Notes: a model not told the origin generated them from the sequence alone. Counted from the first letter of the stretch, positions 24,556 to 59,921 are shown. The stretch: DNA of 60,175 nucleotides from an uncultured virus (IMG/VR IMGVR_UViG_3300005405_000008) (IMGVR_UViG_3300005405_000008:62001-122175), one strand, 5' to 3'. Made by a program: numbers and translations.

Positions 24556-24671
24556 TCCCTTCAAATCATGTTTTGGTTGGATTATGTTCTCTAGGGTATT
24601 TCAATAACAAAAAGTTGAAATACCTTGGAGAGTATAAACTCTAAAATAAAAAACGAAAGAGGTTAAAACTT

Positions 24672-25760
24672 ATGAAAATATCCTTAAACGTTTCCGAACT
24701 TCAAGAAGTTATCAAAAAAGCTCAAAAAGTTATAGCAAAAGGTTCAAAGCTTCCAGTATTACATTCTGTCAAGTTCTCCACGCTTACTGGAGCAATAACA
24801 GTGACCGCGAATAATTTAGAGGTTGTAACTGTCTTTACTCTGTCAGGTAGTATCATGGAATCAGGCGAAATGTTACTAAGTAATGAGACATTAAAACTTA
24901 TCGCAAAATTAAAAAATACATACGAAATTGTGATAAGTGAAAACCTTATCCAAGCGGGAAATAAAACTTTAAAATTCACTTCAATCGATCCTGAAGAATT
25001 CCCGATAACACACGACGAATGTACGTTCACAGCCTTTACAATTTCACAACCCGAATTAATCAAAGCTTTTTCGGTTAATTATGCTTCAGCTATCGAAGAC
25101 AATAGACCAGTATTTAATGGAGTATGCATCGATCAAAATACTTTCCTTTCAACAGATACACATAGATTAGCATGGTATAAAGCTCAAATCGTTAATACTC
25201 TTGATAAACAAATTATAATTCCTTTGCAAACCACAAAATTGTTAATTGGATCTCTACTTGATAAAAAAGTTAGCGGGTTTCCTGTTATAGTATCAGTCGA
25301 TAAAAAGTGCAAATACTTAAAACTTGAATTCCAAAACACTTTAGTTATTACTCGATTGATTGAAGGTGATTTTTTAAACTATAAGCAAGTTCTTCCTCAA
25401 GACCACAAAACGAATGTAAAATTAAATGTTAAAAAATTACTTGACGAACTTTCATTCATTGAAGAACTTGCCAAACAATCAAATGGAGTCATAACTTTAG
25501 CAGTCGAACAGAATGCTATATACTTTGATGCAATGGCTGAAGGCAACGCAGTAACGCTGAATATAGAATCTGACATAACAGGCGAACTCATAGAATGTAT
25601 GGCAGTATCTTATAAGCTTTTGACTGATGCACTAAAGAATGTAGAAGGGGAAGAGATTGAAATAAAATTCAATGGCGCATATTCTCCAATTAGTTTTAAT
25701 AATTCAATTGTTTTACCTGTCAGAATAAAAGACATGAAAAGATTAAATACGGCAGCATAA
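24672..25760 (+). CDS. dnaN: DNA polymerase III beta sliding clamp
   Basis: 362 aa; LPVL, ANNLE, EEFP, RPVFNGV, STDTHRLA, RLIEGDFLNYKQV, VLPVR motifs. Confidence 0.92.
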   Translation: MKISLNVSELQEVIKKAQKVIAKGSKLPVLHSVKFSTLTGAITVTANNLEVVTVFTLSGSIMESGEMLLSNETLKLIAKLKNTYEIVISENLIQAGNKTLKFTSIDPEEFPITHDECTFTAFTISQPELIKAFSVNYASAIEDNRPVFNGVCIDQNTFLSTDTHRLAWYKAQIVNTLDKQIIIPLQTTKLLIGSLLDKKVSGFPVIVSVDKKCKYLKLEFQNTLVITRLIEGDFLNYKQVLPQDHKTNVKLNVKKLLDELSFIEELAKQSNGVITLAVEQNAIYFDAMAEGNAVTLNIESDITGELIECMAVSYKLLTDALKNVEGEEIEIKFNGAYSPISFNNSIVLPVRIKDMKRLNTAA

Positions 25761-25912
25761 ATTATAAAATAAAATTTAGGGAATTGACATAATTCCCTTT
25801 TTGAGTCCGTAAAATATGCTATAATGTATATAGTGGTTACGGATTGAAAAAGGCTGATTATGGAAATTATATAACAATTGGCCTATAACAAATCAAAGGA
25901 GAGTGTATTAAC

Positions 25913-26341
25913 ATGAATTTATACAAGGCATTAAAAGACCAACACCAAGAGGACATCAATAATTTCCCTATGTTCTTTGCTTTCTCAAATGCTCAATTTG
26001 AAGAAGGTATGAACAAACTAGGGTTAAATCCTTCTGAAACTGATAAGCTTTATAAAACTGGTGGCGGTGGTTACTACAGGAAAACTGATGTTAAAGAACT
26101 TCATTCAATCATCAACAGACATGAAGAAGAAATGAAGCAAGCAAGAAAAGATGATCAATTCCTTTATGATATGTTTGATTATGAACTAGGTAATCATGAA
26201 TATTGCATAACATGGGATATAGAGCCTACGTTAGATGCTCTAGGAATGACTAAGGATGAAGTCGAAAATGATGCAAGAATGGCATCTATTTTTAGAAAGG
26301 CCAGACATGCACAGAGTGAATGGTGTTCAAAACACGGTTAA
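25913..26341 (+). CDS. Conserved hypothetical phage protein
   Basis: FFAFSNAQFEEG, GGGYYRK, YELGNHEY motifs; RBS. Confidence 0.8.
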   Translation: MNLYKALKDQHQEDINNFPMFFAFSNAQFEEGMNKLGLNPSETDKLYKTGGGGYYRKTDVKELHSIINRHEEEMKQARKDDQFLYDMFDYELGNHEYCITWDIEPTLDALGMTKDEVENDARMASIFRKARHAQSEWCSKHG

Positions 26342-26434
26342 TAACCCTTCTTTGTGTCGATGGTGGGCAGGTAACATATAACAATAACAAATGTTACTTG
26401 CTTAATTTCGAAGTAAAGAAAGGAAGTGTATTAA

Positions 26435-26650
26435 ATGTATCTAGATTTAGATGAACTTAACAAATTTAATTCTGAAATTCAAAAACTAGAGATTGCAAAA
26501 AGCAAAATGGCAAAGGGAATTGAAACAAATATTATCGAACGATACCTAGACATTATTGAGGAGAAAAAAGACAAAATGACTAGAGGAGATTTCCAAAATA
26601 TTTTAGAGGATTTAGCATATAATGTTAAAAGAATTGGGAAAGGGGTATAG
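26435..26650 (+). CDS. Hypothetical protein
   Basis: ORF with RBS in the array. Confidence 0.65.
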   Translation: MYLDLDELNKFNSEIQKLEIAKSKMAKGIETNIIERYLDIIEEKKDKMTRGDFQNILEDLAYNVKRIGKGV

Positions 26651-26653
26651 TAA

Positions 26654-26860
26654 ATGGGAAATATATATGAATTTAAGGATAAACGAATAAGCGAGTCGGA
26701 AAGCAACACATCTGAAGAATTAATAATTCCCGAAGGTTTCCGAACATGTATTAGTTTATCGGAATGTAAAAAATGTGAAAAAATAGGTCAAAAAAATATT
26801 AAGTCTTGTCAACATTGTTTCAACCTATTTAGAAAAGCAAAGGCAGCCAGACTTATTTAA
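26654..26860 (+). CDS. Hypothetical Cys-containing protein
   Basis: ORF with RBS. Confidence 0.6.
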   Translation: MGNIYEFKDKRISESESNTSEELIIPEGFRTCISLSECKKCEKIGQKNIKSCQHCFNLFRKAKAARLI

Positions 26861-26914
26861 AAAATTACCCACCAATCACGAATTTTAAATGATTATAAAT
26901 AAGGAGGAATAACA

Positions 26915-28479: not shown

Positions 28480-28538
28480 TTTGTATATGTCAAATTTTTT
28501 ATAACAGCCGAGGTTATATGGTTCAGCGATTAAATTAA

Positions 28539-28970: not shown

Positions 28971-29512
28971 TACCAATAAATCTATTAATTCATTGGGTGA
29001 AAGGATGATTAAAAATGAGTTTAAAGGATGTTAAACAGGGATTATTCGATGAATATATTGACAGGGGAATGTCAGAAAAAGACTTTGATAAGGTATTTAA
29101 GAAAGCAATGGATAGCGAATATGTAAGAAAAGCAATATCAGATGCTTTTAATGATGAGCATAATATTTTATTAGAAAAAAGAATGTTTAGATAATTTTAA
29201 CCCAATCAATAGCAAGTTTGCTAGGAATAGAAAGGAGTTTTAAAAAATGATTAAGTTAATATGTAAAAAGTCAGTTCATGGTTTTATCGAGGGTGAAATG
29301 TATTATGGACATTTTGATAAAGATTATAATTTTCACTCTGTTAATCTTAAAAGCGAAGAATATGTTTGTGAAAATGAAGAATGGAAAGAAATATTTGATG
29401 TAAAACATTAACACTGGTCTGAGTCGGTATAATACGCCTTAAGCTCAGAGCGTTAGCAGGGTTTATAACAATCCTGCTAGGTGGTATCAAAATAACAAGG
29501 AGGTGTAAGATT

Positions 29513-29743
29513 ATGAAACTAGTAGAAAAGAAAAGGATTGAATTACCTGTAATAGTTTGGTATGACCATATGGCAAGTGATAGATTCCCAGGAAAGGCAT
29601 GGAATTATACCTTTAGGGATCAAGATGGTAACGAATATTCATGGGATACAACTACGGAACCAGAAATTTACGCTAGTGAAAAATGGTTAGTTAAAATGAC
29701 TTTAATTGGTAAAGACGAATGTTTAGGTTTCCTTTCTTTATAG
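29513..29743 (+). CDS. Hypothetical protein
   Basis: AGGAGG RBS. Confidence 0.6.
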   Translation: MKLVEKKRIELPVIVWYDHMASDRFPGKAWNYTFRDQDGNEYSWDTTTEPEIYASEKWLVKMTLIGKDECLGFLSL

Positions 29744-29810
29744 TTAATCAAGTAAGATTGATTAAGAAATTACCAAATGAAAAGTAAAATTTATTGTATT
29801 TAAGAAAGGA

Positions 29811-30914: not shown

Positions 30915-31250
30915 TTATCCACTAAAATGCTATTTTGGTAGGATGTCAATAACAGCAACTAATATTTATTGCATGGATTTTCAAACATCCGAATAACGGA
31001 CGTTAGAGAATTTTCACAATTATGTGAAGCAAGAACAATGTTCCTATATCTGGTGAAAACCTTGCCACAAACTAACTGTACGTTATTGTATAGTTTATTT
31101 TTCAAGTGATAGACTGTGAATTCAAAGGCGCAAACAGAGACTTTAAAAGTACGAAAAGCAAACCATATTTATTGCGTGGAAGGTATTGTAATTTATTTAA
31201 AAGTGTAATATAATGTAATCAAGAAATAAATATTTAAGGAGTGATACATA

Positions 31251-31495: not shown

Positions 31496-32029
31496 ATGTT
31501 TGAAACTATTGTTAAAAACTATAAAAACTTTGTCATCAAAGTTGAAGAGGGTATTGAAAAAGGATTATTCTTTAGAAGTCCAGTTCAAAAAGTAGACTTC
31601 GGGACATGGGATGAAGACCAATTTAATGCCTATACATATCTTTCAAAAATCAAAAATCCTTTGTTCAGATTTAAAGAAATATTAAAAGGCAATCGTAATA
31701 TTATTGCCAATATTGAAAGATGGGCAGAAAACGACGATGATGGGAGTTGGGCAGGGTTCAAAGCAAATGTATTGTGCTTTCCAGTTTATTTTAGTAGGGC
31801 GTTTAGGCGTTTAGAGGCAATTTCTCAGTTACCAGATACAAATATACAAGAGATAAAATCATACGGATATGAAAGTCAATACAACAAATGTGGTGGATCT
31901 TGTGCAATTGAAAAGACTGTGTTTAAATTAAAGAATGGGAAAAGGATTAATGTTAATGTGTCAGAATCTTTCAAATACACATATAAACATAAGGTTGAAG
32001 AAATAATTGATTCTGATAATGTAGTTTAA
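31496..32029 (+). CDS. Hypothetical protein
   Basis: 177 aa ORF with RBS. Confidence 0.75.
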   Translation: MFETIVKNYKNFVIKVEEGIEKGLFFRSPVQKVDFGTWDEDQFNAYTYLSKIKNPLFRFKEILKGNRNIIANIERWAENDDDGSWAGFKANVLCFPVYFSRAFRRLEAISQLPDTNIQEIKSYGYESQYNKCGGSCAIEKTVFKLKNGKRINVNVSESFKYTYKHKVEEIIDSDNVV

Positions 32030-32232
32030 AAGGCAGATTTTATTCTAAATATGAAAGGAGTTTTAAAAATGAATTGGATGTGGGAAGAAAAAGACAAGTC
32101 TTGTGAAGATTGTTATCATAGGGGATATTGTGTAAAGAAAAACGATACCAAACAAGGTAAATATTGTTTAAGTCATAACACGATTAGTTTACTAGATTGT
32201 AACTGGTGTAAAGATATTAAGTAAATTAAAAT

Positions 32233-32478
32233 TTGAGAGGATGGATTAAAATGAGATTTGCATTACCAACTAGAGTATTCGTTAGAGAAGAGAACGGACT
32301 TTATAATGTATATTTAGATGATAAAATACAAAAGTCATTTATCAAGAAAGAGGCAACTGAAAATCATGATCCTCATTTGTCAGCACATTTTTATGCTGGA
32401 GACTTAGCTGAAGAGTATGATTGCATGTATACAGATGAAGTGGAATGTAAGATAAAATATAACATTGATTGTATTTAA
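32233..32478 (+). CDS. Hypothetical protein
   Basis: ORF with RBS. Confidence 0.6.
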   Translation: MRGWIKMRFALPTRVFVREENGLYNVYLDDKIQKSFIKKEATENHDPHLSAHFYAGDLAEEYDCMYTDEVECKIKYNIDCI

Positions 32479-33955: not shown

Positions 33956-34003
33956 CACTATCAAACATGCATTTTAAGCCGAAAAAGAAAGAGGGATTAG
34001 ATA

Positions 34004-34820: not shown

Positions 34821-34869
34821 TTCTCAGAAAATTACGAATTTATTCTAAATAAATTGGAGGAAAGTAATT

Positions 34870-35127: not shown

Positions 35128-35328
35128 TGAGCAAACTAAAAGAAATAAATCTAAAACTAACTGAAAACGAATATAGAGCATTAATAGCAATGATAGATTA
35201 TGGTTATAACGTTTGTCAAAAGCGGATGTGCATTTGGTGAAATGCAAAGTAAGAATACTGATTGTAATAAATGTCCTTATACAATTGCAAGACATAGTTT
35301 AGAAAATATGTTTGAACAAATCAAATAA
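35128..35328 (+). pseudogene. Frameshifted small gene
   Basis: MSKLKEINLKL...VCQ continues as SGCAFGEMQ...CNKC in another frame after an A-run at about 35218. Confidence 0.45.
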
Positions 35329-35337
35329 TACTTTTAA

Positions 35338-36165
35338 TTGAAAAATAAAGGAGAAATACTGATGACAAGACAAGAATATAAACAAAAACTGATGAGGAAA
35401 ATTATCTTTACTCACAAAATTAAAGACAAAGAAATAATAAAAGAACTCAAAAATGCATCTTTTGAGGACACAATATTATTACATATTCAAATGCTTCCGT
35501 TGCCCCGAACATTAAACCAACATAATAGTCAATTTATCTGGATTAAAAGACATTGTGATTATGCAATAAGATATAAAAGAGAATGTTCTAATAAGTTAAC
35601 AGATTTAAAGAACGAATATTCTAAATTTATTAAAGAAAATAAAATCAAAAACACAAACGATTTTACGCCAGAACAATATACAAAATATCGACTATTACTA
35701 GAACTTATATCCTTAGAAGAACAAAATCTAGAAACAACTAAAGATAGTATTGTTGACTTAAATGGCAAACTTGAGTATATTTGTGATTATTATGATAAGA
35801 TTAATTTATCACTAGAAGAATTTGCTTCTTTGTGCGGCATTAATTATGTCAGTGCTAAATTAAATATAAAAGATGAGACTGACGATACAGAAGATTATAA
35901 GCACTGGAATTATCTTTTTAATGGTATTGAGGATTCTAGGGAAGATACGGGTTGGAAATATAATAGAAATGGTATGCCGATCTTTCATTTAACAACTCAA
36001 AATTTTATGATAATGATGGAACGTAATAAAGAATTGAAAGATAAAGTAGATGATTATGTAATGCATACAATGGGTATGGCAAAAGGAGCTATGAAGTTTA
36101 AAACAGATGATGAAGGGAATCAGATATTAGAAAAATATTATCCTCCATTAAATGTTATTAAATAG
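35338..36165 (+). CDS. Hypothetical protein
   Basis: 275 aa ORF. Confidence 0.75.
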   Translation: MKNKGEILMTRQEYKQKLMRKIIFTHKIKDKEIIKELKNASFEDTILLHIQMLPLPRTLNQHNSQFIWIKRHCDYAIRYKRECSNKLTDLKNEYSKFIKENKIKNTNDFTPEQYTKYRLLLELISLEEQNLETTKDSIVDLNGKLEYICDYYDKINLSLEEFASLCGINYVSAKLNIKDETDDTEDYKHWNYLFNGIEDSREDTGWKYNRNGMPIFHLTTQNFMIMMERNKELKDKVDDYVMHTMGMAKGAMKFKTDDEGNQILEKYYPPLNVIK

Positions 36166-37262: not shown

Positions 37263-37296
37263 AAAAGCAGGACATAAACCTCCTGCTTTCTATTTA
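37263..37296 (+). terminator. Intrinsic terminator
   Basis: AAAGCAGGA...TCCTGCTTT stem followed by a T-rich tract. Confidence 0.65.
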
Positions 37297-37373
37297 TTTG
37301 TACCTATAAAAACGCAATTTGCTTGGAATATATAAAACGTAAAATAATATTTTTTATTTATCCTAAATTGGTG

Positions 37374-37402
37374 TTGACATACCAATTACCAAGATATATA
37401 CT
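37374..37402 (+). promoter_or_regulatory. SigmaA-type promoter
   Basis: TTGACA-17-TATACT. Confidence 0.7.
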
Positions 37403-37454: not shown

Positions 37455-37721
37455 ATGAATCACATTCAGCAGAAGGATTTAGAATCACTTATAGAAAAAT
37501 ACAATGCAACTGATTCTACTGTCATAAAAAGCAATCTAGTAAGAATTATTGACAATTCAGAATATCATAGGAATGGTCAGGGTTTAGCAGATAAAACCGG
37601 ATTGAGTATTGAAACAATTTATCAATATCGAAAAGTTAGTAAGAAGACCAATATTAGTTTTGAAAATGCTTTAAGGTTAGTTAATGCATTAGGGGTTAAG
37701 ATTGAAGATTTAATGGAGTGA
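37455..37721 (+). CDS. XRE/Cro-like HTH regulator
   Basis: LADKTGLSIETI...ISFENALRLVNALGVKIEDL. Confidence 0.8.
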   Translation: MNHIQQKDLESLIEKYNATDSTVIKSNLVRIIDNSEYHRNGQGLADKTGLSIETIYQYRKVSKKTNISFENALRLVNALGVKIEDLME

Positions 37722-38376: not shown

Positions 38377-38838
38377 ATGATTAAAAAAATCGGAATGTGC
38401 AACAAAGACACAAGAGAAGGTTTTGGAAATATGTATTGCCGGACACAAGAACGTGCAAAAGAGATTGTTGAGTTAGTTAGAAAATCAAAAAGATGGAAAG
38501 GAATATTAGATTATAACCAAGATATTGAAATAGATATCAAAGAAATCTCAGAAGAACAATATTGGAATGAGTGGCTTGAAGAATTTACAAAGAGAACAGA
38601 ATCCGAATTGTTTAATTCTTTTATTAAAGACTTAGATAAAGTATACAGAAGAACTTTTGAAGGATTCCCTGATGTTAATCACGATGGAGAAGTATCTCTT
38701 TATCTTGATAAAGATTTTACAAAATATCTAGATGGTTGTTTAACTTACGATAAACCCATTTGCTCACTAGGAGAAATGATAGAAGATTTAAAAGGTAACA
38801 AAATCAGAATTACTATAGAAGTTATTCAATTGGCATAA
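38377..38838 (+). CDS. Hypothetical protein
   Basis: 153 aa ORF. Confidence 0.7.
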   Translation: MIKKIGMCNKDTREGFGNMYCRTQERAKEIVELVRKSKRWKGILDYNQDIEIDIKEISEEQYWNEWLEEFTKRTESELFNSFIKDLDKVYRRTFEGFPDVNHDGEVSLYLDKDFTKYLDGCLTYDKPICSLGEMIEDLKGNKIRITIEVIQLA

Positions 38839-39102
38839 ATGCCTGATTTGATGTTGTTGTAAACTGACTCAACAAAAGGGTGAGCAGTTAAGAGGAGAAA
38901 TTCAAATGTTAAAAGTTAAAGAAATTAGAAGTGATGGGCAATCTATAGATAAAAAAATTAACGATTTTTTAACAGAGAATAAAATAAGTAGGGAAGATTT
39001 AATTGATATTAAATATATTACAGTAGGTGTGCCACAAACAATTAAAACAAGTTGTTTAATAATTTATGATAAACAATAACACAGATAAATGAGAGGTGCT
39101 AC

Positions 39103-39393
39103 ATGATAAACTTAAAATATCTTCCGTATTTTTATACTACAATGTCTGGAGAAGGTAAAAGCAGAGTTAAACTAATGATGCAAGAAGAACAATTATTAAC
39201 TGAAATTAAAACTATTTCCGACGAAGAACTAATGAACAAAATACAAAATGAATTTAAATCAACACATAATTATTATGACTTTATTAATTATTTAGAAATT
39301 TTGGAAAGATGTAAAAGATTATTGTTAAAAGGCATTAATGATTTTGATTATATTAGGAAATTAATCTATAAAGATTTAGATTTTGTACTTTAA
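39103..39393 (+). CDS. Hypothetical protein
   Basis: GAGG RBS. Confidence 0.65.
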   Translation: MINLKYLPYFYTTMSGEGKSRVKLMMQEEQLLTEIKTISDEELMNKIQNEFKSTHNYYDFINYLEILERCKRLLLKGINDFDYIRKLIYKDLDFVL

Positions 39394-39443
39394 ATGATAG
39401 ATTTAATGGTGTTTAAAATTAAGAATGAAAGAAGGAAGATGTA

Positions 39444-40378: not shown

Positions 40379-40485
40379 ATGATATATTATTAAATTAAAG
40401 GAGGAGAAAATATTATGGAAGAAAAAAGATTTAGGAGTTGAAGTAAGATAAAACGTGAATTTCATGCTATGAGAGGAGAATAAAT

Positions 40486-40698
40486 ATGTTTAAAGTTAAA
40501 AGTGTAAAAATCGAAGAAAACTTTATGAGGTTAAATGTTGAAGATGGTGTTGCAGGTTCACTAATTATTCAAAGAACTTCAGGTAAAATTGATCCAAATA
40601 TAGCAGAGCAATTAGTTATAAATTATGAGTCGGAAGCTCTTGAATTAATTGAATTGATTAAGAGTGGTATTCCGTTTCTTAATGGGAAAATAGAATAG
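40486..40698 (+). CDS. Hypothetical protein
   Basis: GAGGAG RBS. Confidence 0.65.
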   Translation: MFKVKSVKIEENFMRLNVEDGVAGSLIIQRTSGKIDPNIAEQLVINYESEALELIELIKSGIPFLNGKIE

Positions 40699-40712
40699 CA
40701 CGAAACAGGGAT

Positions 40713-41000
40713 TTGAAAGGAGGATATTTAATGAAAAGTGCAATTGAAATTATACAAGAAGCAAAAACTTTAATTTATCCCAATGAAGGAATAAAGCGTC
40801 TGGCGAAAGAAGCATATGATGATCCTGATTGGTTCTGTATAATGGATAGTGATGGATATTTAACAAGTTCTTATAGAGAAGAATGTCCTGATCGTGGTAT
40901 TTGTCATAGACCAGATTTTATGTTGGTTTGCGTAGCTACAAGATGGAAAAATGATCAAATTGGAGAATTGGCAATTAAAATTTATAACGGTGAAAAATAA
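40713..41000 (+). CDS. Hypothetical protein
   Basis: AGGAGG precedes the internal ATG. Confidence 0.65.
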   Translation: MKGGYLMKSAIEIIQEAKTLIYPNEGIKRLAKEAYDDPDWFCIMDSDGYLTSSYREECPDRGICHRPDFMLVCVATRWKNDQIGELAIKIYNGEK

Positions 41001-41053
41001 ATTAAAATCTTTGAAAGACTTATTTGCTTGGATAAGAAAGGATGGAATTTTAA

Positions 41054-41326
41054 ATGAAAATTAATTACAAATTTGAGGGAAATAAGATAATTAAAACCAT
41101 TGAATCAGAATTCACTGAGAAAGAAATGGATTTATTAAAAAGAGTAAAACACGAACATAGAGTTTATATTACAGATTGCTATAGAACAGATGAAGAAGCT
41201 GAACTTGACACATTGATTGACAATTTAAGAAAGTGTGATTTAGTTAAAGATCAATTCGGGATAAATGAATATACTTTAACTGAAATTGGATTTGAGTTTC
41301 TTAAAAGTTATAACCCAAACAAATAA
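41054..41326 (+). CDS. Hypothetical protein
   Basis: ORF with RBS. Confidence 0.65.
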   Translation: MKINYKFEGNKIIKTIESEFTEKEMDLLKRVKHEHRVYITDCYRTDEEAELDTLIDNLRKCDLVKDQFGINEYTLTEIGFEFLKSYNPNK

Positions 41327-41350
41327 CAAATTTATTGGAGGAATTTTAAA

Positions 41351-42257: not shown

Positions 42258-42447
42258 TAATTCCTAAGAAACTGTGGATTTATGCTATCAAAAAATACTT
42301 CAGTAGACCATTGACTTACGAACAAAGATGGAAGAATACATATTTTACTCGAAAGGAGATTTTTTGAAATGACTAACAAAATCAACAAAGAAAAGGCAAT
42401 CCGTATTCTAAAAATCCTTCAACAATGGAAAGAGGAGGAATTCAATA

Positions 42448-42683: not shown

Positions 42684-43367
42684 GTGATTGTGGTGACAAA
42701 GAAAAATGAATTCACAAAAACATGTAAAGAATGTGGTAGTCCGGCACTAAAAAATTCTACAAAATGCACTTCTTGCGGAGCAAAATTGAAAACTAGTCGT
42801 GGTATGCAAGAGGTTCAACCAATTAAAGATAAGGTTAAGATTGAAGAAATGAAAGTATATCTAAAATCAAAATCGTTAAGAGATTGGGCATTGTTTACAC
42901 TTGGAATCAATTCTGCTTTAAGAATTAGTGATTTGTTGGATTTGAAAGTTTTAGATGTAATGGATGAAAAAGGTAAAATACGTGATAGAATTAGATTGCA
43001 TGAACAAAAGACCAGTAAAGCAAAAAACTTCCCATTCAATACAAACGTAAAAAATGCTTTATCAGAATATCTTGCTACTATTCAACCCGATCAAATATAC
43101 CTATTTGCCTCTAGAAAAGGAAATGAAGCTATCACGAGACAACAAGCGCATGTTATTCTAAGCAAAGCAGCAAAGTCTGTAGGCATAAAAGAATCTATTT
43201 CTACTCATTCCCTACGAAAAAGTTTTGCATTTGCTCTGTATGATGCAGGGGTAGATATTACACGTATTCAAGCTTTGCTTAATCACTCTTCACCAAAGGA
43301 AAGTTTACGGTATATCGGAATCACCCAAGATGAACTAGATGATGTGTATCTTGAATTAAATCTGTAA
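42684..43367 (+). CDS. Tyrosine recombinase with N-terminal zinc ribbon
   Basis: ALRISD, EQKT, HSLRK, LNHS and RYIG give a complete R-K-H-R-H-Y set; CKEC and CTSC at the N-terminus. Confidence 0.92.
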   Translation: MIVVTKKNEFTKTCKECGSPALKNSTKCTSCGAKLKTSRGMQEVQPIKDKVKIEEMKVYLKSKSLRDWALFTLGINSALRISDLLDLKVLDVMDEKGKIRDRIRLHEQKTSKAKNFPFNTNVKNALSEYLATIQPDQIYLFASRKGNEAITRQQAHVILSKAAKSVGIKESISTHSLRKSFAFALYDAGVDITRIQALLNHSSPKESLRYIGITQDELDDVYLELNL

Positions 43368-43566
43368 GGAGGAGAAAATCAATTGAAAACAAACTACAAA
43401 AGCATAGGATACCTAGTCAGATGCAAATGTGGTGAGTGGTCTAAATGGCATATAATTCTTGATTCTGGCGAAGAAGTGTATGTTTGCGAGAGATGTTATT
43501 ATAGAGATTGGAAGAATAAATTAAATAAAACAAAATGAGAATTTCGTTGGATGGAGATGTAAAAAC

Positions 43567-44794: not shown

Positions 44795-44851
44795 GAGCAT
44801 TTAAACCTGCGATTTCATTTTATTTGAGAAGAAGAAAGGACCTGATTAAAA

Positions 44852-45199
44852 ATGTTAAAAAGATATAAAAATATAGGTGTTTTAATTGATTATAATGAGT
44901 ACTTAAATTATCCAGAACCAGTAAGAGAAATGATAAACATAGATAAAATAAATTTATTATTGCTATCTCAAAGTAAAGGAGATAATATTCATGTTTGTTT
45001 CGATTCTCCATTGCGCAGTACACAGGACATACAGGTAGATTGGGTATATGCTTGTTTGCAATTGGATGGATTAAATAGTAACAATATAAAATTATTAAGC
45101 ATTGATGATATTGATATAAAACGTAATGTCTTAACTTGCGAAATTGATTGTGTAGATTGCTCAAGATATTTTAATATTTCTAAATTTTTAATACGATGA
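44852..45199 (+). CDS. Hypothetical protein
   Basis: ORF with RBS. Confidence 0.6.
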   Translation: MLKRYKNIGVLIDYNEYLNYPEPVREMINIDKINLLLLSQSKGDNIHVCFDSPLRSTQDIQVDWVYACLQLDGLNSNNIKLLSIDDIDIKRNVLTCEIDCVDCSRYFNISKFLIR

Positions 45200-45208
45200 A
45201 TCAGCAAA

Positions 45209-45457
45209 TTGAAAGGAGGAAATTTAATGCAAGGTCAAGTTTTATTTAGAGCAACAGGTCAAAAAAGCAAAACAGGTAAAAAAGTTTTTGTTGTAATTGG
45301 TGTGGTGGGCATAGATGAAAATGAGATAGGAATAGAAGATGGGTTTAAATATGACTTATTTGATATGTCAGTATTTAATGGAAAAGATTTTACCGAATTG
45401 AATAATTCTCTTTCACCAGAAGACTTGCTTGAACAGAAAATATGGGTAGTCAAATAA
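45209..45457 (+). CDS. Hypothetical protein
   Basis: AGGAGG precedes the internal ATG. Confidence 0.65.
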   Translation: MKGGNLMQGQVLFRATGQKSKTGKKVFVVIGVVGIDENEIGIEDGFKYDLFDMSVFNGKDFTELNNSLSPEDLLEQKIWVVK

Positions 45458-45633
45458 AAAGTCAGTTTTAAGGGAGGAGCTATTTATATGACAATTAAAT
45501 CATTTAAGGAAAGAGCCGAAGAGTTAGAAATTGAACCGAATAATAAACCAATAAATATCAATGGAAAATATTCTCTTGCATTTGAAGAATGGTTAAGAGA
45601 TAATCGAAATAAAATTGAAGGAGAATCAATCAA

Positions 45634-47157: not shown

Positions 47158-47577
47158 ATTAAAACATATCGTAAAAATAAATCTTATCATGTTTCTGAAC
47201 ATTTGGTATTTAAATGCAATTACCATGTGATATTTTGTCCCAAGTACAGACATAAAATATTAACTGGTAAAGTTTCTGATAGATTGAAAGAAATATGTTT
47301 GGAAGTAGCAACAGCTCATGATTTTGAAATTACTGATATTGAAACTGATAAAGATCATGTACATATGATTATTAATTGTAATCCTAGATACGGTGTTACA
47401 AAATGCATTCAAGTATTAAAACAAGTAACTGCTTATAGATTATTTGAAGAATTCCCACACATAAGAAAAAATAAATTATGGGGTGGGAAGTTCTGGAGTA
47501 GAAGTAGTTTTGTATCTACGGTTGGAAGTGTTTCATTAGAAGTAGTTAAACAATATATTGAGAATCAAGGCAAATAA
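47158..47577 (+). CDS. tnpA: Y1 HUH transposase TnpA (probable ATT start)
   Basis: YHVIFCPKYR, DHVH, LWGGKFWSRS, YIENQ motifs; frame open to an ATT after AAAGGA. Confidence 0.92.
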   Translation: MKTYRKNKSYHVSEHLVFKCNYHVIFCPKYRHKILTGKVSDRLKEICLEVATAHDFEITDIETDKDHVHMIINCNPRYGVTKCIQVLKQVTAYRLFEEFPHIRKNKLWGGKFWSRSSFVSTVGSVSLEVVKQYIENQGK

Positions 47578-47633
47578 TTCTTGTAATTATTATATAAACA
47601 TGATATAATTAATAAAGAAAGGTGGTGAATACT

Positions 47634-49073
47634 ATGTCTAATTTTGTTTTAACTTTGCCGTTAAAAACTGAAAAATTTCAAGAGGATATCTTAGATAAAA
47701 ATTTTGAAAAATGCAGAAAGATTTACAACTCTTGTATTTCTGAATTACATAAGAGATATAATCACATGAGAGAATCTAAAGCATATCAAGCAAATTGCAA
47801 ATACAAAGGGAAAGATAGAAATAAAATATTTAATGGATTGAATAAGAAATATAATTTGACAGAGTATTCATTACATGATTTTGTTAAACCAATGAGTAAA
47901 TATTTTGGCATAGACGCTATGACAGTTCAAAAGATTGCTACTAGAGCATTTGATGCTTTTCAAGAATTAATATTCCATAAGGCAAATAAGATTAAATATA
48001 AAGCATATGGCGAATTAAACTCCATTGAAGGAAAAACTAATAAACAAGGAATTAGATTTAGAGATGATACTGTATTATTTTCAGGGTTGAAATTATCTGT
48101 GATTATTGATAAAAATGATATCTATGCTCATATGGCATTACAAAATAAAGTCAAATATTGCAGAATTAAACGCGAAATTATTAAAGGTAAATACCATTAC
48201 TATGTTCAATTGATTTTAGATGGAATTCCTCCACAGAAGATAGACATGAACACTGGAGAGATTAAACACTATACCAACGAAGGTGTAGTTGGACTGGATA
48301 TTGGAACTCAGAGTTTAGCAATATGTTCTAAGAATGATGTTAAACTATTAGAACTTGCTCCAGATATTCAGAATATTAAAGATAAAAAACGAATATTGCA
48401 ACGTAAAATGGATCGTTCTAGAAGAGTAAATAACCCTAACAAATACAATGAAAATGGCACGATTAATACTAAAAATAAAACTAAATGGATTAAATCAAAA
48501 CATTACATCAAGATTCAAATGGAGTTAAAAGAAATTCAAAGAAAACAAAGAGAAATCAGAAAGCAATCTCACAATCAACTTGCTAACTATATATTAACAT
48601 TAGGTAATGACATAAAGGTTGAGACTATGAGTTATAAAGGATTACAATCTAGGGCTAAAAATACTACTATCAACAAAAAGACAGGTAAGTTTAATAAGAA
48701 AAAGAGATTCGGTAAGAGTTTAGCGAACAAAGCTCCTTCAATGTTGTTGACAATACTGGATAATAAACTTAAATGGATTGATAAGAATTTAAAGAAGATT
48801 GACACTTGGAAAGTTAAAGCTAGTCAATATAATCATACTAGTGATGAGCACAATAAAAAAGAACTTGATGAAAGATGGAACGACTTTGGAGAGTTTAAAA
48901 TACAAAGAGATTTGTATTCTAGTTTTTTGATTATGAATGTAAATAATGATTTAGAAACAATTAATAGAGATTTATGTTTTGAGAAGTTCAATGACTTTAG
49001 AATATTACACGATATTGAGGTTGAAAGATTAAGAAGTTTGGATTTAAGTAAAGCATTAAGAAATGTAATCTAA
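47634..49073 (+). CDS. tnpB: RNA-guided endonuclease TnpB
   Basis: RuvC I GLDIG, II KVE and III QRDLYSS; own promoter TTGTAA-17-TATAAT at 47581. Confidence 0.9.
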   Translation: MSNFVLTLPLKTEKFQEDILDKNFEKCRKIYNSCISELHKRYNHMRESKAYQANCKYKGKDRNKIFNGLNKKYNLTEYSLHDFVKPMSKYFGIDAMTVQKIATRAFDAFQELIFHKANKIKYKAYGELNSIEGKTNKQGIRFRDDTVLFSGLKLSVIIDKNDIYAHMALQNKVKYCRIKREIIKGKYHYYVQLILDGIPPQKIDMNTGEIKHYTNEGVVGLDIGTQSLAICSKNDVKLLELAPDIQNIKDKKRILQRKMDRSRRVNNPNKYNENGTINTKNKTKWIKSKHYIKIQMELKEIQRKQREIRKQSHNQLANYILTLGNDIKVETMSYKGLQSRAKNTTINKKTGKFNKKKRFGKSLANKAPSMLLTILDNKLKWIDKNLKKIDTWKVKASQYNHTSDEHNKKELDERWNDFGEFKIQRDLYSSFLIMNVNNDLETINRDLCFEKFNDFRILHDIEVERLRSLDLSKALRNVI

Positions 49074-49291: not shown

Positions 49292-49370
49292 GCATTTGTG
49301 GAAATAAAAATGGAAATCACAATACAAGAAGATAAACAATAAAATCCCACTTTGGTCGGGTTAAGAAAGG

Positions 49371-49867: not shown

Positions 49868-49924
49868 TCCTAGCAAAGACATCTTTCGAGGGAATAGAAA
49901 TTAAAATGAAAAGGAGATTATATA

Positions 49925-50203: not shown

Positions 50204-50430
50204 AATATAACTTACCATAAAATACAACATTTATAGGAGTTGATAAAATGAAAGTAGATGTTAAAGATTATCGTTATAAATGGGCAAAAGAATTAGCAAG
50301 AAGAATAGAAGATGATGTTGAAGATAATGCAGATGAGCTAAATGATGGCAGTGTATACTTTGAAAAGTTACTTATTAAGAATATTTTAGAGCATACATAT
50401 CAAACATCAAATTAAGAGAGGAATTAAGTA

Positions 50431-50862
50431 ATGAAACCAAACAAAACAATTAGAGAAATGGACTCTCATAAACTACTCAAAGCATTTGAAAGTGAAGGAG
50501 ATTTTAAAATGAAACAAAGAATTACCGTATCTCAACTTCAAGAACTTACACAAGAGCAACAAGATTATCTAAGATTATGGTGGTCTGAACGCCAACAACA
50601 AGGAGATGTGTTTATATGTCTTGGAAATGATTTTCTAAATGGTAAACAATTTGCATGGGATGGACACAATAAACCATTTAATATGTCAATTCCACTTTTG
50701 AATATTGGGCAGATGATTGAGATATTATTAGGTTGTAGTTGTATTAACTGTGCATTAAAAATGCTTGATGAAAGAATAAGAAATAAAATCTACGGTAATT
50801 ATGGAATGGAATTTTGTGATGCTCTATGGGAAGTGACAAAAGAATATTTAAGGATACATTAA
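50431..50862 (+). CDS. Hypothetical protein (true start probably MKQRIT)
   Basis: PLLNIGQMIEIL and CDALW motifs. Confidence 0.7.
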   Translation: MKPNKTIREMDSHKLLKAFESEGDFKMKQRITVSQLQELTQEQQDYLRLWWSERQQQGDVFICLGNDFLNGKQFAWDGHNKPFNMSIPLLNIGQMIEILLGCSCINCALKMLDERIRNKIYGNYGMEFCDALWEVTKEYLRIH

Positions 50863-50911
50863 GATCATTCTTTGAAACTATTAAATAAAACTATGAAAGA
50901 AGGAAATAAAA

Positions 50912-52011: not shown

Positions 52012-52059
52012 AATCCTAACAAAGCATTATTTGAATGGAATTAGAAAGGAGAAAATAAG

Positions 52060-52257
52060 ATGCAATTAACTAAAAAATTAATTGAAAAGAAATATAATTG
52101 TGAATTAATTAGAGACTTCGGGTTTGATGATAGTCATTTATACTGGGTAGCACATGAAAATGACTCAGAGAATAAAGGATTTGAATTTGCTGATGGGTGG
52201 ACACTTAAAGAATTGGTAAACAACATTGAGAAGAAATTAAAATTACAAAAGAAATAG
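52060..52257 (+). CDS. Hypothetical protein
   Basis: AGGAG RBS. Confidence 0.65.
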   Translation: MQLTKKLIEKKYNCELIRDFGFDDSHLYWVAHENDSENKGFEFADGWTLKELVNNIEKKLKLQKK

Positions 52258-52517
52258 AATTGTCATTTTAAAGGAGAAATTAAATTATGAAACTTTATGT
52301 CACCCAAGAAGAGGCCAACAAAATAAAAGAATTAATCAAGAAAATCAATGATAAATTTTTCACAATAGTATCTAGAAAAATTGCAAAAGCTCAATATGAA
52401 TCATTAATAAGAAGAATCAAAGGTATTCGAGGTTATGAAGATTAATAATAAACAGGAAATAAATATTGACATTATTGTAAATAATATGTTATACTTATAG
52501 TTCAAGGAGGTGAGAAT

Positions 52518-56316: not shown

Positions 56317-57051
56317 ATGAAATTAAAATTCATAGGAACAGGTTCGGCTTTCAACACAAAACTAGGAAACACAAGTGCCTACATCAAAGAAAACAACACA
56401 CTATTACTTCTTGATTGTGGTGAATTGACTTTTGATAGAATATTATCTCTAAATCTATTATCAGATGTTAATGAAGTTCATATTGTAGTAACCCATACTC
56501 ATCCAGATCATATAGGTAGTCTAGGTAGTTTCATATTTTACTGTTATTTTATCAAGAAAATTAAACCAACATTCCATTCTGCTGATAATGATTTTATTGA
56601 ATTACTTGAAATTATGGGAGTTACAGAAGATCATTGCGAATTTGATAATTGTGCTTTTGATCCTTCTGTAATGATTGATAGTTTAGATTTAGGATTATAT
56701 TTCCTAGAAAATAATCATGTTAAAGAACTTATGACATTTGGGCTATTATTAGTTAAAAATCCTTCTGAAGAAGAACATGAATATATTATTTATTATAGTG
56801 GTGACAGTTGTGACATAGAAGATAATATTTTAGATGGATTTAAAGAAGGTAAGATTAATTATCTATACCAAGATACTTGCAAAGCAGATTATAATGGTAA
56901 TGTTCATTTGTCATTGAGAAGACTTACAGAATTAATTCCTGAAGAGTTAAGAAATAAAATATACTGTATGCATTTAGATAGCGGTTTTGATAGAAACGAG
57001 GCAGAGGAGTTAGGATTTAATGTTGTAGAAATCGAAGGAGGTTTAAATTAA
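56317..57051 (+). CDS. MBL-fold metallo-hydrolase (RNase Z-like)
   Basis: FIGTGSAF, LLDCG, THTHPDH, YSGD, VHL, MHLD motifs. Confidence 0.9.
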   Translation: MKLKFIGTGSAFNTKLGNTSAYIKENNTLLLLDCGELTFDRILSLNLLSDVNEVHIVVTHTHPDHIGSLGSFIFYCYFIKKIKPTFHSADNDFIELLEIMGVTEDHCEFDNCAFDPSVMIDSLDLGLYFLENNHVKELMTFGLLLVKNPSEEEHEYIIYYSGDSCDIEDNILDGFKEGKINYLYQDTCKADYNGNVHLSLRRLTELIPEELRNKIYCMHLDSGFDRNEAEELGFNVVEIEGGLN

Positions 57052-57589: not shown

Positions 57590-57633
57590 TACTTCGAATG
57601 TTATGTTTTAAGCCAATTGAAAGGAGAATTTAT

Positions 57634-57972
57634 ATGGATATTGTGGTCACGATTTCTAAATCAGAATATAAAAACGATGACAAGGAAACAGAATTCTTAT
57701 TAAATAACCCAGATGCGTATCAATTTTAGACTTTAAGTAAAATGCCTAGGAGTCTAAACATTGGTGATAGATTATATTTTATTAAAAATAATAAAGTAGA
57801 ATCATCAATGGAGTTTTGTGGCAAGGGTGATGAATTATCTGGATTAACCTGTGAAGTAACTGGCAGAGTATGGCAAGGTTGTTTGTTATTATTAAGAGAT
57901 TTAAGGAACGAAAATTTACCATTCACAATTAAGGGATTCCAAGGATTTAGATATAGGTGGTGGGAAGTATGA
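57634..57972 (+). pseudogene. Gene interrupted by an in-frame TAG at 57727-57729
   Basis: RBS + MDIVVTISK...AYQF*TLSKMPRSL is in frame with the 57742 ORF. Confidence 0.6.
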
Positions 57973-58238
57973 TTGAAGTGATATTATCCAATGGCAGAAA
58001 ATTTTATGCTTGTGAAGATGTGACATGGTTTAATAATCAAGTAATTGTGGATAGATCAAAATATGATATTGATTATAATTATGTCACCTTTACAGTTTGG
58101 AATTTAAAAAAGAAGTTACCATTTATGAAATATCGTTTAGGAAGTCTTGATATAGAAGTAATTAATCAAAATTATATAATTAGTGTTCGTGACGTTGGTA
58201 ATGACAACGAATGGTTTGAAAAGTATGTAAGTAAATGA
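57957..58238 (+). CDS. Hypothetical protein
   Basis: ORF in the array. Confidence 0.6.
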   Translation: MVGSMIEVILSNGRKFYACEDVTWFNNQVIVDRSKYDIDYNYVTFTVWNLKKKLPFMKYRLGSLDIEVINQNYIISVRDVGNDNEWFEKYVSK

Positions 58239-58257
58239 AAGTCATTTTTAACCTATT

Positions 58258-58533
58258 ATGAAAGGAGAAATAATAATGGGCAATAGAAAAAATTGTTGTG
58301 AAGCATATCATATATGTTTTAATCATGATAGTTGGTATTGTGATGAATGTGTAAGAAATAAAAATCTAGTTGATTATTTAGATATAAGAGTAACACCTAT
58401 GTATGAGGGACAATTTGATGAATTTTGTAAAGACCTTACTAAAAAAGAAATGCAAGAGTCTCAAAAAAGATTATTATATGACGATGATGGATATTTACAA
58501 AAGACATATAGAAAAATACTAAAGGAAGAATAG
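58258..58533 (+). CDS. Hypothetical protein
   Basis: AGGAG precedes the internal ATG. Confidence 0.6.
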   Translation: MKGEIIMGNRKNCCEAYHICFNHDSWYCDECVRNKNLVDYLDIRVTPMYEGQFDEFCKDLTKKEMQESQKRLLYDDDGYLQKTYRKILKEE

Positions 58534-58584
58534 GGTACAATGAAAGTCAATTTTCGTGGTATTTAATAAAGAAGAAAAGGATGA

Positions 58585-58839
58585 TTGATAATGTATTTAA
58601 AAGTAAAAGCAAAAGAAGGTTTTATTTTATATAAACACGATGAGACAGAAATTTTAGCAGAAGTAAAAATAGGAGAAATATTTAAGGCAAAGTTATATGA
58701 ATTTACAGAAGAATATTTTGCAAAAGACTCCAAAGGGAGAGAATTTTATGTTGGGGAATTGGATATTGATGGTAATCTTAAATTAGATGAATGTTTTGAA
58801 ATAGCAAATATATTTAAAGGAAAGGAAATTATTAAATGA
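58585..58839 (+). CDS. Hypothetical protein
   Basis: ORF with RBS. Confidence 0.6.
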   Translation: MIMYLKVKAKEGFILYKHDETEILAEVKIGEIFKAKLYEFTEEYFAKDSKGREFYVGELDIDGNLKLDECFEIANIFKGKEIIK

Positions 58840-59405
58840 ATATTAAACCATATTGGGATTACTTTAAATATGTATTAGAACACAAGAAGAATATATTTAA
58901 AATTTGTTGGTCGAAGGGGCTATACAAACACGCCATCACCCATGATTTAAGTAAATTCAGTCCACAAGAGTTTGTAGCATATGCAAAATATTTTTACATA
59001 AACAAAGATGAATTTAAAGAAGAATTTGATAAAGCATGGGAACATCATTACAAAAACAATCCTCATCATTGGGATCACTGGTTAGATGAAAATGGCAAAC
59101 CTAAACCGATCCCTGATCGTTATTTAAGACAAATGATATCTGATTGGGAGGTTATGAGTTTAAAGTTTGGAGGTTCAGCACAGGAGTATTATTTAAATAA
59201 TTATAGAAAGATTAAATTGGAATATGAAACCAGAATGATATTAGAAATGATGCTGAATCTGAATGATAGTTTAGCATGTAATTATGGTCATACATTAGAA
59301 GATTTTGCAAATATGGATGATGAAGATACATATAATAGGTATTTTGGATTTATTAGAGATAGGTATGGTATTGATAGTTATGAGTTGTTGAGTAACAAAC
59401 AATAA
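58836..59405 (+). CDS. HD-domain protein (DUF5662-like)
   Basis: HDLSKFSP.EF, AWEHHYKNNPHHW, MISDW motifs. Confidence 0.8.
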   Translation: MNIKPYWDYFKYVLEHKKNIFKICWSKGLYKHAITHDLSKFSPQEFVAYAKYFYINKDEFKEEFDKAWEHHYKNNPHHWDHWLDENGKPKPIPDRYLRQMISDWEVMSLKFGGSAQEYYLNNYRKIKLEYETRMILEMMLNLNDSLACNYGHTLEDFANMDDEDTYNRYFGFIRDRYGIDSYELLSNKQ

Positions 59406-59418
59406 AGGGGATGTAAAG

Positions 59419-59820
59419 ATGTTAAATGAAATAAATAAATTGTTTTCATATTTTCCTGATGAAGAGACATTAAAAATATCTTTGCATAAAAATGGTGATT
59501 CAAATAAAAAATATCATTTTTATGTATATGTTATGTTTAAAAATGGATTTCCTAGTGGTAAATATGTGTGGGGTTATACTACTGTTGATTATACAGATGG
59601 ATTTGATGATAAAACCAAATATATTTGCGACAAACTATGTGAAAATAGATTTGAAAATATTTCTGATGATATTGCGAAACAAATTCTTATATTAGGATTT
59701 ATGATTAATTATAATACTGATGCCACAAATAGTCGTTCGTTGGAAATAATCAAGCAGAAAACTAATTACGGAAATGATTACAGATTAATAGTCCCTGAAA
59801 TAGAATATAAAAGATATTGA
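59419..59820 (+). CDS. Hypothetical protein
   Basis: 133 aa ORF with RBS. Confidence 0.65.
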   Translation: MLNEINKLFSYFPDEETLKISLHKNGDSNKKYHFYVYVMFKNGFPSGKYVWGYTTVDYTDGFDDKTKYICDKLCENRFENISDDIAKQILILGFMINYNTDATNSRSLEIIKQKTNYGNDYRLIVPEIEYKRY

Positions 59821-59921
59821 GCGAGTGATTATTTTTGTAAAGAAGAAGAGTATGATGAACAATTGCAATAAAAACCAGAATTGATCGGAAGTAATAAATA
59901 AATAATAGAAAGAGGAAATAA

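Follow-up and report, generated by a model that had tools for sequence, protein, structure and literature searches.

Dyad-symmetric sites with private 6-bp centres at gene junctions of an uncultured virus: possible exchange addresses for a small tyrosine recombinase

Phage genomes are mosaics, yet what drives exchange at gene boundaries is for the most part not understood; explanations usually invoke illegitimate events that arise by chance and pass the filter of selection, or brief regulatory sequences held in common. Integron attC sites work as folded single strands, and integron cassettes change order. Heterospecific lox and FRT sites, which are used for cassette exchange in the laboratory, have the same arms and different spacers and recombine only with their own kind. 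E. coli dif has two 11-bp half-sites and a 6-bp central region where the strands are cleaved, and the arms of difH end in AAAA beside the centre (PMC5357621). L5-type stoperators are 13-bp asymmetric sites in one orientation, bound by a two-domain monomer (PMC9283540), and SPBRE comprises ten sites with a 15-bp motif in promoter regions, bound by a protein, MrpR, that is without crucial catalytic residues (PMC10516654). Here we report on a repeated 26-bp site, TCC-N4-AAA-N6-TTT-N4-GGA in its exact form, in DNA of an uncultured virus, IMGVR_UViG_3300005405_000008:62001-122175. This stretch of 60,175 nucleotides, which we call the window and whose first letter is position 1, was originally predicted to hold an integron-like cassette system. 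We find that most of the sites stand at gene junctions, that no 6-bp centre recurs within a genome, and that related phages carry the same centres in the same order between genes that are mostly not homologous. Our tentative reading, to which we give somewhat less than an even chance, is that these may be centre-addressed exchange sites for a small recombinase, used between relatives present in the same cell.

The window makes up the final 60 kb of a viral contig of 122 kb, for which CheckV estimates a completeness of 66%, and the G+C content is 28-29%. Bases 1-19,300 form a minus-strand arm. From about 22,000 onwards the window is taken up by the arm that concerns us here (the + arm), with about 100 mostly small plus-strand genes, few of which could be assigned to a family in Pfam and PHROGs profile searches. 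Genes were called simply as open reading frames (ORFs), with start codons picked by ribosome-binding site, and these calls are crude. For comparison we used related viral genomes (G codes) and metagenome loci (L codes), all of which come from a few related metagenome sets and may partly overlap or be redundant. G003 and G004 are 100% identical over 105 kb, so that pair provided no recent insertions or deletions and G004 was dropped from later counts.

The exact pattern has four matches where 0.03 are expected, and four were reached in 0 of 100 shuffles. They lie where they had been predicted, at 24556, 30918, 49868 and 52014, and begin 0, 3, 0 and 2 nt past a stop codon. Motif discovery without a seed returned only the ribosome-binding site or A/T-rich noise, so we seeded expectation-maximization (EM) with AAA-N6-TTT; on 1,320 upstream regions it converged on about 225 sites. 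The 26-bp consensus is T-C-C-n-W-T-V-AAA-N6-TTT-B-A-W-n-G-G-A. When we scored the predicted coordinates with a position matrix learnt from five genomes, the four perfect copies and all five near-perfect ones (29201, 37302, 41007, 43526 and 49335) reached at least 12 bits. The list of degenerate cores stood in large part, with 21 of 27 at 12 bits or more and 23 at 10 or more, and those at about 30389 (-2.8 bits), 38114 (-2.2 bits), 58236 (-2.4 bits) and 46914 (6.3 bits) failed.

We then counted matches of at least 12 bits in real and reversed sequence, with a matrix trained without this genome. Intergenic DNA of the + arm holds 35 matches against 0 in the reversed control, and its coding DNA 4 against 1, which bears out the expected enrichment at junctions; in the remainder of the contig we found 3 against 2 (intergenic) and 5 against 8 (coding). 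For the core, intergenic DNA of the + arm gives 40 matches at a spacing of N6 and 34 at N7, compared with 12-28 at the other spacings from N0 to N12. The AAA/TTT core is depleted at N6 and N7 in coding DNA, and each of the five genomes shows the same N6/N7 peak in its intergenic DNA. With a threshold of 14 bits, these genomes together have 214 intergenic and 35 coding matches (3 and 18 in reversed sequence), and 26 metagenome loci outside the training set have 123 (18 when reversed). The motif is present in all five related phage records that we examined, with 1-3 copies of the exact 26-mer pattern in each and 0 of a backwards control pattern. The motif and an orthologue of the recombinase described below are both present in six of six family records. 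In the distant YonO-type phages c-st, BUCT082 and PMBT24, the relaxed pattern gives 0 matches and the orthologue is missing too (the best recombinase match is 25-26% identical).

The EM matrix is mirror-symmetric column by column and reads T, C/A, C/A, n, W, T, not-T, AAA, six weak positions, TTT, not-A, A, W, n, G/T, G/T, A. The site thus has a low-information 6-bp centre between two inverted arms, each about 10 bp long, which is the layout of tyrosine recombinase sites that the original prediction had described. Across 220 sites, 13 of the 14 pairs of symmetric positions covary no more than column-shuffled sites do (z from -1.3 to +1.1), and one pair is lower (z = -3.3). Symmetric conservation without covariation argues for a protein dimer on duplex DNA and not for a hairpin in RNA or single-stranded DNA. 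We rejected the hairpin or RNA-fold reading because of this absence of covariation and, judging by these sequences, the sites are double-stranded binding sites of a dimeric protein. Two other candidates were also rejected: REP/RAYT-like elements, which we considered since there is an IS200/IS605 element in the arm, because the sites are not hairpins, and parS-like centromeres because the sites are scattered across more than 35 kb, at junctions between genes.

In many sites the left arm overlaps the stop codon of the gene before it (the distance from stop to TCC is mostly -13 to +9), and the right arm lies 9-31 nt from the next ATG, with its GGA acting as the ribosome-binding site in several sites. 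The core mostly starts 28-56 nt before a start codon with a peak at 35-45, and starts at 30-55 nt are far more frequent than for control spacings. This position, and the double use of GGA, are what we would expect if the motif were a promoter for a phage polymerase or sigma factor, or an RNA element (a processing site, translation signal or terminator) of the neighbouring gene. The phage does encode a YonO-type RNA polymerase, an enzyme whose promoter is not known even for SPbeta (PMC5467207). However, dyad symmetry without pairing covariation opposes an RNA fold, and a G+C-rich stem and T run are absent. The distance from TTT to the ribosome-binding site varies from 1 to about 30 nt, and several sites that adjoin the upstream stop codon, such as 24556 and 30918, are 90-550 nt from the next gene, so the anchor is the junction and not the ribosome-binding site. 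SPbeta YonO starts at one mapped late-operon site (PMC5467207), whereas the late arm here is without the motif. We rejected a promoter because of the symmetry and the variable spacing, and we regard this whole group of explanations as very improbable.

Sites of at least 12 bits are found in 28 of the 82 same-strand junctions of the + arm, and 35 of the 39 matches in the arm are intergenic. Having many dyad-symmetric sites in short gaps within the operons of one arm also fits our main rival explanation, which is that these are multi-copy operators of stoperator type, where a dimeric phage repressor silences the accessory arm or blocks read-through across it. The repressor could be a helix-turn-helix (HTH) protein, or the recombinase-like protein described below, acting as MrpR does in SPbeta; the sites would persist because they regulate, and the breaks inside them would be what selection lets survive. 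There are precedents for this: Cluster A mycobacteriophage repressors halt elongation at numerous genomic sites (PMC9283540), and MrpR of SPbeta, which has a tyrosine-recombinase fold, binds the repeated SPBRE at ten places (PMC10516654). One of our sites, at 37302, is flanked by a terminator-like hairpin (37264-37289) and the sigma-A-like promoter (37374-37402) of a Cro/CI-type HTH gene, and it is kept with that gene in a relative.

Promoters and terminator-like hairpins (at 25778, 37264 and 52976) split the arm into a few operons, and most sites are inside operons. None of the sites overlaps the strongest sigma-A-like promoters (37374, 41659, 52466 and 53024), whereas SPBRE lies in promoter regions. 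A generic promoter scan was not above shuffles (127 vs 114 ± 12; 149 vs 133 ± 10.5). L5-type sites are 13-bp, asymmetric and monomer-bound, which a 26-bp dyad is not, and MrpR is without crucial catalytic residues, all of which the recombinase here has kept. We hold operators to be somewhat less likely than our own reading.

The centres are harder to reconcile with operators. Our pool comprises 461 non-identical sites that score 13 bits or more, drawn from this contig, four further genomes and 27 loci, and it contains only 249 different 6-bp centre words. The original prediction had noted that the centre differs almost every time, and in fact it never repeats inside any sequence: 0 of 10,146 within-sequence pairs are identical, where about 5 would be by chance and 67 at the rate seen between sequences. 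Between sequences there are 629 identical pairs compared with about 48-53 expected from column frequencies, and hexamers taken from unconstrained flank positions give 135-243 in the same comparison. Pairs that match at five of six positions show no excess (609 vs 745 expected, in a class where the null model is off by up to about 18%), so centres are either identical or unrelated. Relative to gene direction, each of the 22 commonest centres is found as its reverse complement 0-1 times.

Shared centres also keep their order. Among the sequence pairs with at least three centres in common, 70 of 75 are perfectly collinear, and over all sequences 1200 orderings are concordant and 82 discordant. 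When the five genomes are compared two by two, Kendall tau is 1.00 in 7 of 10 cases; G001 and G005, for example, share 17 centres. The operator reading offers no reason why a centre that is not contacted should be conserved all-or-none, unique in the genome and in one orientation, and these all-or-none centres would still need explaining if the sites are operators.

There is one centre, ATTGCA, whose site family is present in 19 sequences, once in each, and was not found as a site in the window. Before it is a conserved non-coding stretch of about 70 nt, which we aligned from G002 (= L031:12700-12850) and 14 other loci; no consensus RNA structure was found for this element from the aligned loci. 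In G002, G003 and G005 the recombinase gene follows 1.5-2.8 kb downstream, and the site could be of a special or accessory kind.

What stands beside a given centre is usually different in each genome. For 119 placed same-centre pairs in the five genomes, neither flanking gene is homologous in 104 (blastp E <= 1e-5), and the upstream gene only, the downstream gene only or both are homologous in 6, 8 and 1. At the nucleotide level, flank similarity is absent in 461 of the 629 same-centre pairs. The homologue of a site-adjacent gene usually has no site in the other genome (67 and 71 cases), and where it has one the centre is different in 23 and 20 cases and the same in 12 and 16. The GGCAGA site at 32022 is a good example, because its six sequences have five upstream contexts and four downstream genes in mixed combinations. 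Since the centres are collinear and their flanks mostly unrelated, the sites behave as fixed, recognisable landmarks with genes between them that are replaced. In this arm of small and largely unknown genes, the sites last longer than the genes do, and the same site, known by its centre, holds the same rank in relatives where its neighbours are unrelated.

We looked at where homology breaks in this population, which is strongly mosaic, with short patches of at least 90% identity between otherwise unlike contigs. Distinct ends of high-identity patches fall within 15 bp of a site centre in 37 of 354 cases, compared with 14.4 ± 3.8 when positions are drawn at random from the same class, coding or non-coding (maximum 25 in 500 draws). 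In motif junctions, homology on the upstream side ends 2.5-7.5 nt to the right of the centre in 14 of 25 cases. Homology on the downstream side starts at the left edge of the core in 7 of 25, beyond the right arm in 13 of 25 and within the right arm in 0. Homology usually breaks at the right edge of the core (centre plus TTT). In identity profiles for which pairs were not selected by centre, when only the upstream side is homologous, 30 of 37 pairs share the centre (the ATTGCA family excluded), and identity is 86-100% across the centre and down to background by 4 nt past TTT. These profiles indicate that the halves of a site came from different parents and that hybrid sites formed in register. 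The break between centre/TTT and right arm in the 30 of 37 is what the border of a strand exchange would look like, although selection alone could look similar, and the asymmetry of the break points rests on 55 informative pairs (37 + 18).

Other approaches to the same problem were less useful. Conservation of gene adjacency across the five genomes was saturated, with about 90% of arm junctions broken with or without the motif, and the association between motif and adjacency was gone after matching for arm and gap size. Odds ratios for the site travelling with the upstream and with the downstream gene were about 4 and about 5-7, both confounded by arm. A simple search for insertions and deletions gave few informative cases.

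The original prediction had placed an intact tyrosine recombinase within the array, and this is indeed what we see. The gene at 42690-43367 (+) encodes a small Xer-like protein of 225 aa with an N-terminal CxxC...CxxC segment (PF00589, 93.2 bits vs a cut-off of 27.1). All catalytic residues are present, and R78, K107/K110, H173, R176, H199 and Y208 do not vary among 20 homologues, which reach down to 45% identity. The NCBIfam models that it resembles most are XerA, XerD and XerC, but it scores below the cut-off of each (XerA 96.8 bits vs 220). The nearest solved structures by sequence are XerA and XerH, and the nearest folds to the predicted structure (pLDDT 82.7) are XerA, XerH-difH, integron integrase and Cre. 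The protein has 187-225 aa (the 187-aa form starts at M39), with little beyond the catalytic domain, and has no ordinary core-binding domain; the CxxC...CxxC segment ahead of the catalytic domain is present here and in one relative. Tyrosine-recombinase families near this size do exist, as the NCBIfam 'tyrosine-type DNA invertase' profiles have 198-200 positions. Of the + arm genes in the window, only this one has homologues in all four relatives (66-78% identity). Homologues that are 41-64% identical occur widely, in Bacillota and other genomes, with the nearest in Desulfosporosinus. The recombinase is a candidate for the protein that binds the sites, on the strength of its co-occurrence with them in sequence data.

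If so, the conserved recombinase of the arm would bind each site as a dimer in the core layout of Xer/dif or lox, and the sites would be fixed crossover points between related genomes in one cell. The private 6-bp centre would act as an address, so that strand exchange could go to completion only if the partner were the site in the corresponding position of a relative. The result would be a swap of everything on one side, or of a gene block between two sites, in which gene order, reading frames and ribosome-binding sites would not change, and private centres would prevent deletions between sites of one genome. To our knowledge, a centre without contacts matters under no mechanism except one in which partners must match at the centre, and this would explain why the centres are discrete, conserved, unique in the genome and in a single orientation, and why hybrids are in register. 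We think it possible, though doubtful, that these are natural heterospecific sites, dozens per genome, with shared arms and a private 6-bp overlap that acts as a positional address for swapping allelic modules, in register, with co-infecting or resident relatives. If this is true, the phage would have a built-in engine for reassorting an arm of accessory (probably anti-defence) genes, fast reshuffling of accessory genes without operon breakage would be explained, and mutually exclusive recombination sites could be of practical use.

Several results weigh against exchange at addressed sites. Recent alignment ends (at least 90% identity) are in 47 of 368 motif junctions and 176 of 1449 motif-less junctions, so motif junctions are not hotter. 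With gap sizes matched, the counts of junctions with ends are 24/99 (motif) vs 58/219 (motif-less) and 12/189 vs 28/410, and 227 of 277 junction end points fall in motif-less junctions. The idea that breakpoints would fall in the motif has therefore held up only in part, since ends do cluster at the sites while junctions with a site break no more often than others. In addition, pairs with only downstream homology share the centre in just 6 of 18 cases and differ in 12, so many exchanges either needed no equal centres or fell outside the site. Zero repeats of a centre within a genome is weak by itself, because only about 4-5 are expected (p ~0.01). As for the recombinase, only about 20-58 residues precede the catalytic domain, and in 26 loci we found no site at a constant distance from the gene. 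Around its 41-64% homologues (80 loci) the strict pattern is nearly absent and the relaxed pattern matches in 4, in a search for this motif. Finally, the shared metagenome origin of all the sequences may make the sample partly redundant.

That motif junctions are no richer in breakpoints than others agrees with operators. Similar rates at all junctions, and the mosaic population with its short patches of high identity, would also be explained if the sites were passive hot spots of short homology, as has been proposed for the PeSL cassettes of T4-type phages. Here the sites would bind a protein for some unrelated purpose, general recombination of host or phage would cross over in the few conserved bases, and selection would keep products that are in frame and in register. 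We think this quite unlikely. What sites with different centres have in common is limited to AAA, TTT and some bases of the arms; although the conserved word of the ribosome-binding site is longer, breaks in the upstream pairs fall right after the core and not there; and discrete, never-repeated centres are left unexplained. A small part of the probability, less than for passive hot spots, we leave to readings that we did not consider.

The individual sites follow in order along the arm, each with its centre, its score and the other sequences where that centre is present. The first two are at 22161-22186 (ACTCTC, 13.7 bits, weak and intergenic; also in G001) and 22519-22544 (AAGACA, 15.9 bits; collinear with G001 and G003), and the first exact copy is at 24556-24581 (TCATGT, 21.7 bits). 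After this are 26867-26892 (CACGAA, 18.8 bits; common to G003), 28972-28997 (CTATTA, 14.7 bits; G001, G005, L080), 29201-29226 (AGCAAG, 17.3 bits; G001) and 29773-29798 (AGTAAA, 13.9 bits; G005). The exact copy at 30918-30943 (TGCTAT, 16.0 bits) has the next called gene 552 nt on. The site at 32022-32047 (GGCAGA, 16.2 bits; G001, G002, G003, G005, L079, with varying flanking genes) overlaps the upstream stop codon, and that at 32448-32473 (TATAAC, 15.0 bits; G005, L079) is within the 3' end of ORF 32251-32478. Next are 33956-33981 (CATGCA, 16.0 bits; G002, G005, L075, L079), 34822-34847 (TTACGA, 14.0 bits) and 35316-35341 (TAATAC, 14.5 bits; G002, L075).

The HTH gene at 37455-37721 has one site upstream, at 37302-37327 (ACGCAA, 16.8 bits; kept with this gene in G001), and another that overlaps its end, at 37692-37717 (TTGAAG, 16.1 bits). 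These are followed by 38831-38856 (GCCTGA, 16.0 bits; L074), 39386-39411 (GATAGA, 11.9 bits), which has weak arms and a centre common to 10 other sequences, and 40444-40469 (CGTGAA, 16.8 bits; G002). At 40696-40721 (CAGGGA, 23.3 bits) the GGA of the right arm is within the ribosome-binding site, 9 nt from ATG. Then come 41007-41032 (GACTTA, 15.2 bits) and 41314-41339 (TAACAA, 14.7 bits; G005, L073, L079, L081). The recombinase gene has its first upstream site at 42262-42287 (CTGTGG, 16.3 bits) and its first downstream site at 43526-43551 (TGAGAA, 19.6 bits).

Further along are 44797-44822 (CTGCGA, 15.9 bits; seven other sequences, collinear), 45192-45217 (CAGCAA, 19.2 bits; G005 and four loci), 45450-45475 (AGTCAG, 18.5 bits; G002, L059, L080) and 49335-49360 (TCCCAC, 18.6 bits; G003, L073, L080). 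The exact copy at 49868-49893 (GACATC, 21.4 bits) has its centre in seven other sequences with different flanks. It is followed by 50213-50238 (TACAAC, 18.4 bits), 50855-50880 (TCATTC, 14.5 bits; four loci), the last exact copy at 52014-52039 (GCATTA, 18.0 bits) and 52250-52275 (TTGTCA, 15.1 bits; G002). The remaining three are 57590-57615 (GTTATG, 13.5 bits, weak), 58536-58561 (GTCAAT, 17.8 bits; G002) and 59864-59889 (ACCAGA, 17.8 bits), which is 43 nt past the stop of ORF 59419-59820.

Some other features of the + arm and its surroundings should be mentioned. Near the divergent switch region, a perfect palindrome with a 20-bp stem (22555-22602) lies just upstream of ORF 22637-22804 and beside a TATAAT-like sequence, and it may be an operator of the lysis-lysogeny switch. 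A Pistol self-cleaving ribozyme at 29413-29486 (+) (Rfam RF02679, 47.1 bits vs a gathering score of 34.5) fills part of the 101-nt gap between ORFs 29247-29411 and 29513-29743 in the small-gene arm. The IS200/IS605-type element at 47203-49073 (+) consists of a Y1 transposase (PF01797, phrog_2577) and a 479-aa protein that matches the PHROG transposase family phrog_506, and a promoter-like sequence of its own lies at 47581-47609. Downstream of this element, the next site, 49335, is unusually far from the preceding stop, at 261 nt. The arm also encodes a metallo-beta-lactamase-fold protein (56317-57051, +), a GmrSD-N-domain protein (22925-24316, +) and a DNA polymerase III beta clamp (24672-25760, +), which fits an accessory or counter-defence arm. 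The first of these has a sub-threshold likeness to the anti-Pycsar nuclease Apyc1 (47.7 bits vs a cut-off of 50).

In the minus-strand arm, which also codes for a helicase, a PhoH-like protein and nucleases, there is a homologue of the YonO-type single-chain RNA polymerase (932 aa, phrog_8308) with a 763-aa ORF upstream (5556-8354 (-) and 8366-10657 (-)). Its identity is 24% with SPbeta yonO, 30% with the gene that is split in Clostridium phage c-st and 34% with Bacillus phage BUCT082. The 763-aa ORF, directly upstream, has no match in Pfam, PHROGs or NCBIfam. A tRNA gene is present in the late arm at 2432-2503 (-) (Rfam RF00005, 55.9 bits). A megablast search with 12 kb of the + arm against a phage collection gave no match. 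Among the relatives, the IMG/VR records G003 and G004 share blocks of 20.6 kb and 84.3 kb at 100% identity that are joined differently and lie around middle parts that differ (41 kb and 122 kb), which suggests a much larger genome or an assembly chimera.

We now return to the comparison with known systems, beginning with integrons. Like attC arrays, the sites are repeated between small genes of the same direction with a tyrosine recombinase nearby, and the exchange point would lie at a fixed base in the site, with one part staying with the upstream gene. Unlike them, they show no pairing covariation, have a fixed order and lack an attI-like site. In 220 sites we found no complementarity beyond column composition of the kind expected for the paired R''/L'' and L'/R' boxes of attC. 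The two integron-integrase models scored 43.4 bits (cut-off 265) and 30.1 bits (cut-off 435), and in the 26 loci no site had a constant position beside the recombinase gene, as an equivalent of attI would. Cassettes in an integron are mobile in order, and the 70 of 75 collinear pairs do not show this. With no folded attC, no mobile order and no attI with an IntI-type integrase, the integron analogy fails; since motif junctions also carry no more recent breakpoints than motif-less ones, the evidence opposes the part of the original prediction in which individual cassettes are gained, lost or shuffled.

PeSL cassettes of T4-type phages are also conserved intergenic elements in hyperplastic regions where gene content changes. 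However, PeSL are about 100 bp with a sigma-70 promoter and a terminator stem-loop, recombine mutually and can form mini-circles, whereas the sites here are 26 bp, have no promoter or stem and are fixed in order. The stoperators of Cluster A mycobacteriophages (L5 gp71) are similar in that there are dozens of repressor sites in short intergenic gaps genome-wide; what we see is a 26-bp dyad with a private centre, without the asymmetry of the L5 type. SPBRE and MrpR resemble our case as a repeated intergenic element in a YonO-encoding SPbeta-like phage whose MrpR has a tyrosine-recombinase fold. They differ in that our sites are at about one third of junctions, mostly without a promoter, in an arm whose recombinase has every catalytic residue.

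The Xer/dif systems (dif, difH and archaeal dif with XerH, XerS and XerA) have inverted arms of about 10-11 bp, a 6-bp centre and A/T-rich inner ends, like the sites described here, and the phage protein is closest to XerA, XerD and XerH by sequence and predicted fold. However, Xer systems have one site per replicon, while here there are about 30-90 per genome, with all centres different and at gene junctions. At 187-225 aa, the phage protein also lacks the usual DNA-binding domain at its N terminus, and its scores are far below the NCBIfam cut-offs for Xer.

We know of no natural phage system of the heterospecific-site kind, although our literature look-up was not aimed at this question. Heterospecific lox and FRT sites differ from ours in being an engineered arrangement. 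They are alike in that unique, collinear centres would achieve recombination with their own kind only, and if our reading is true, these sites would be the first natural counterpart known to us of engineered heterospecific-site cassette exchange.

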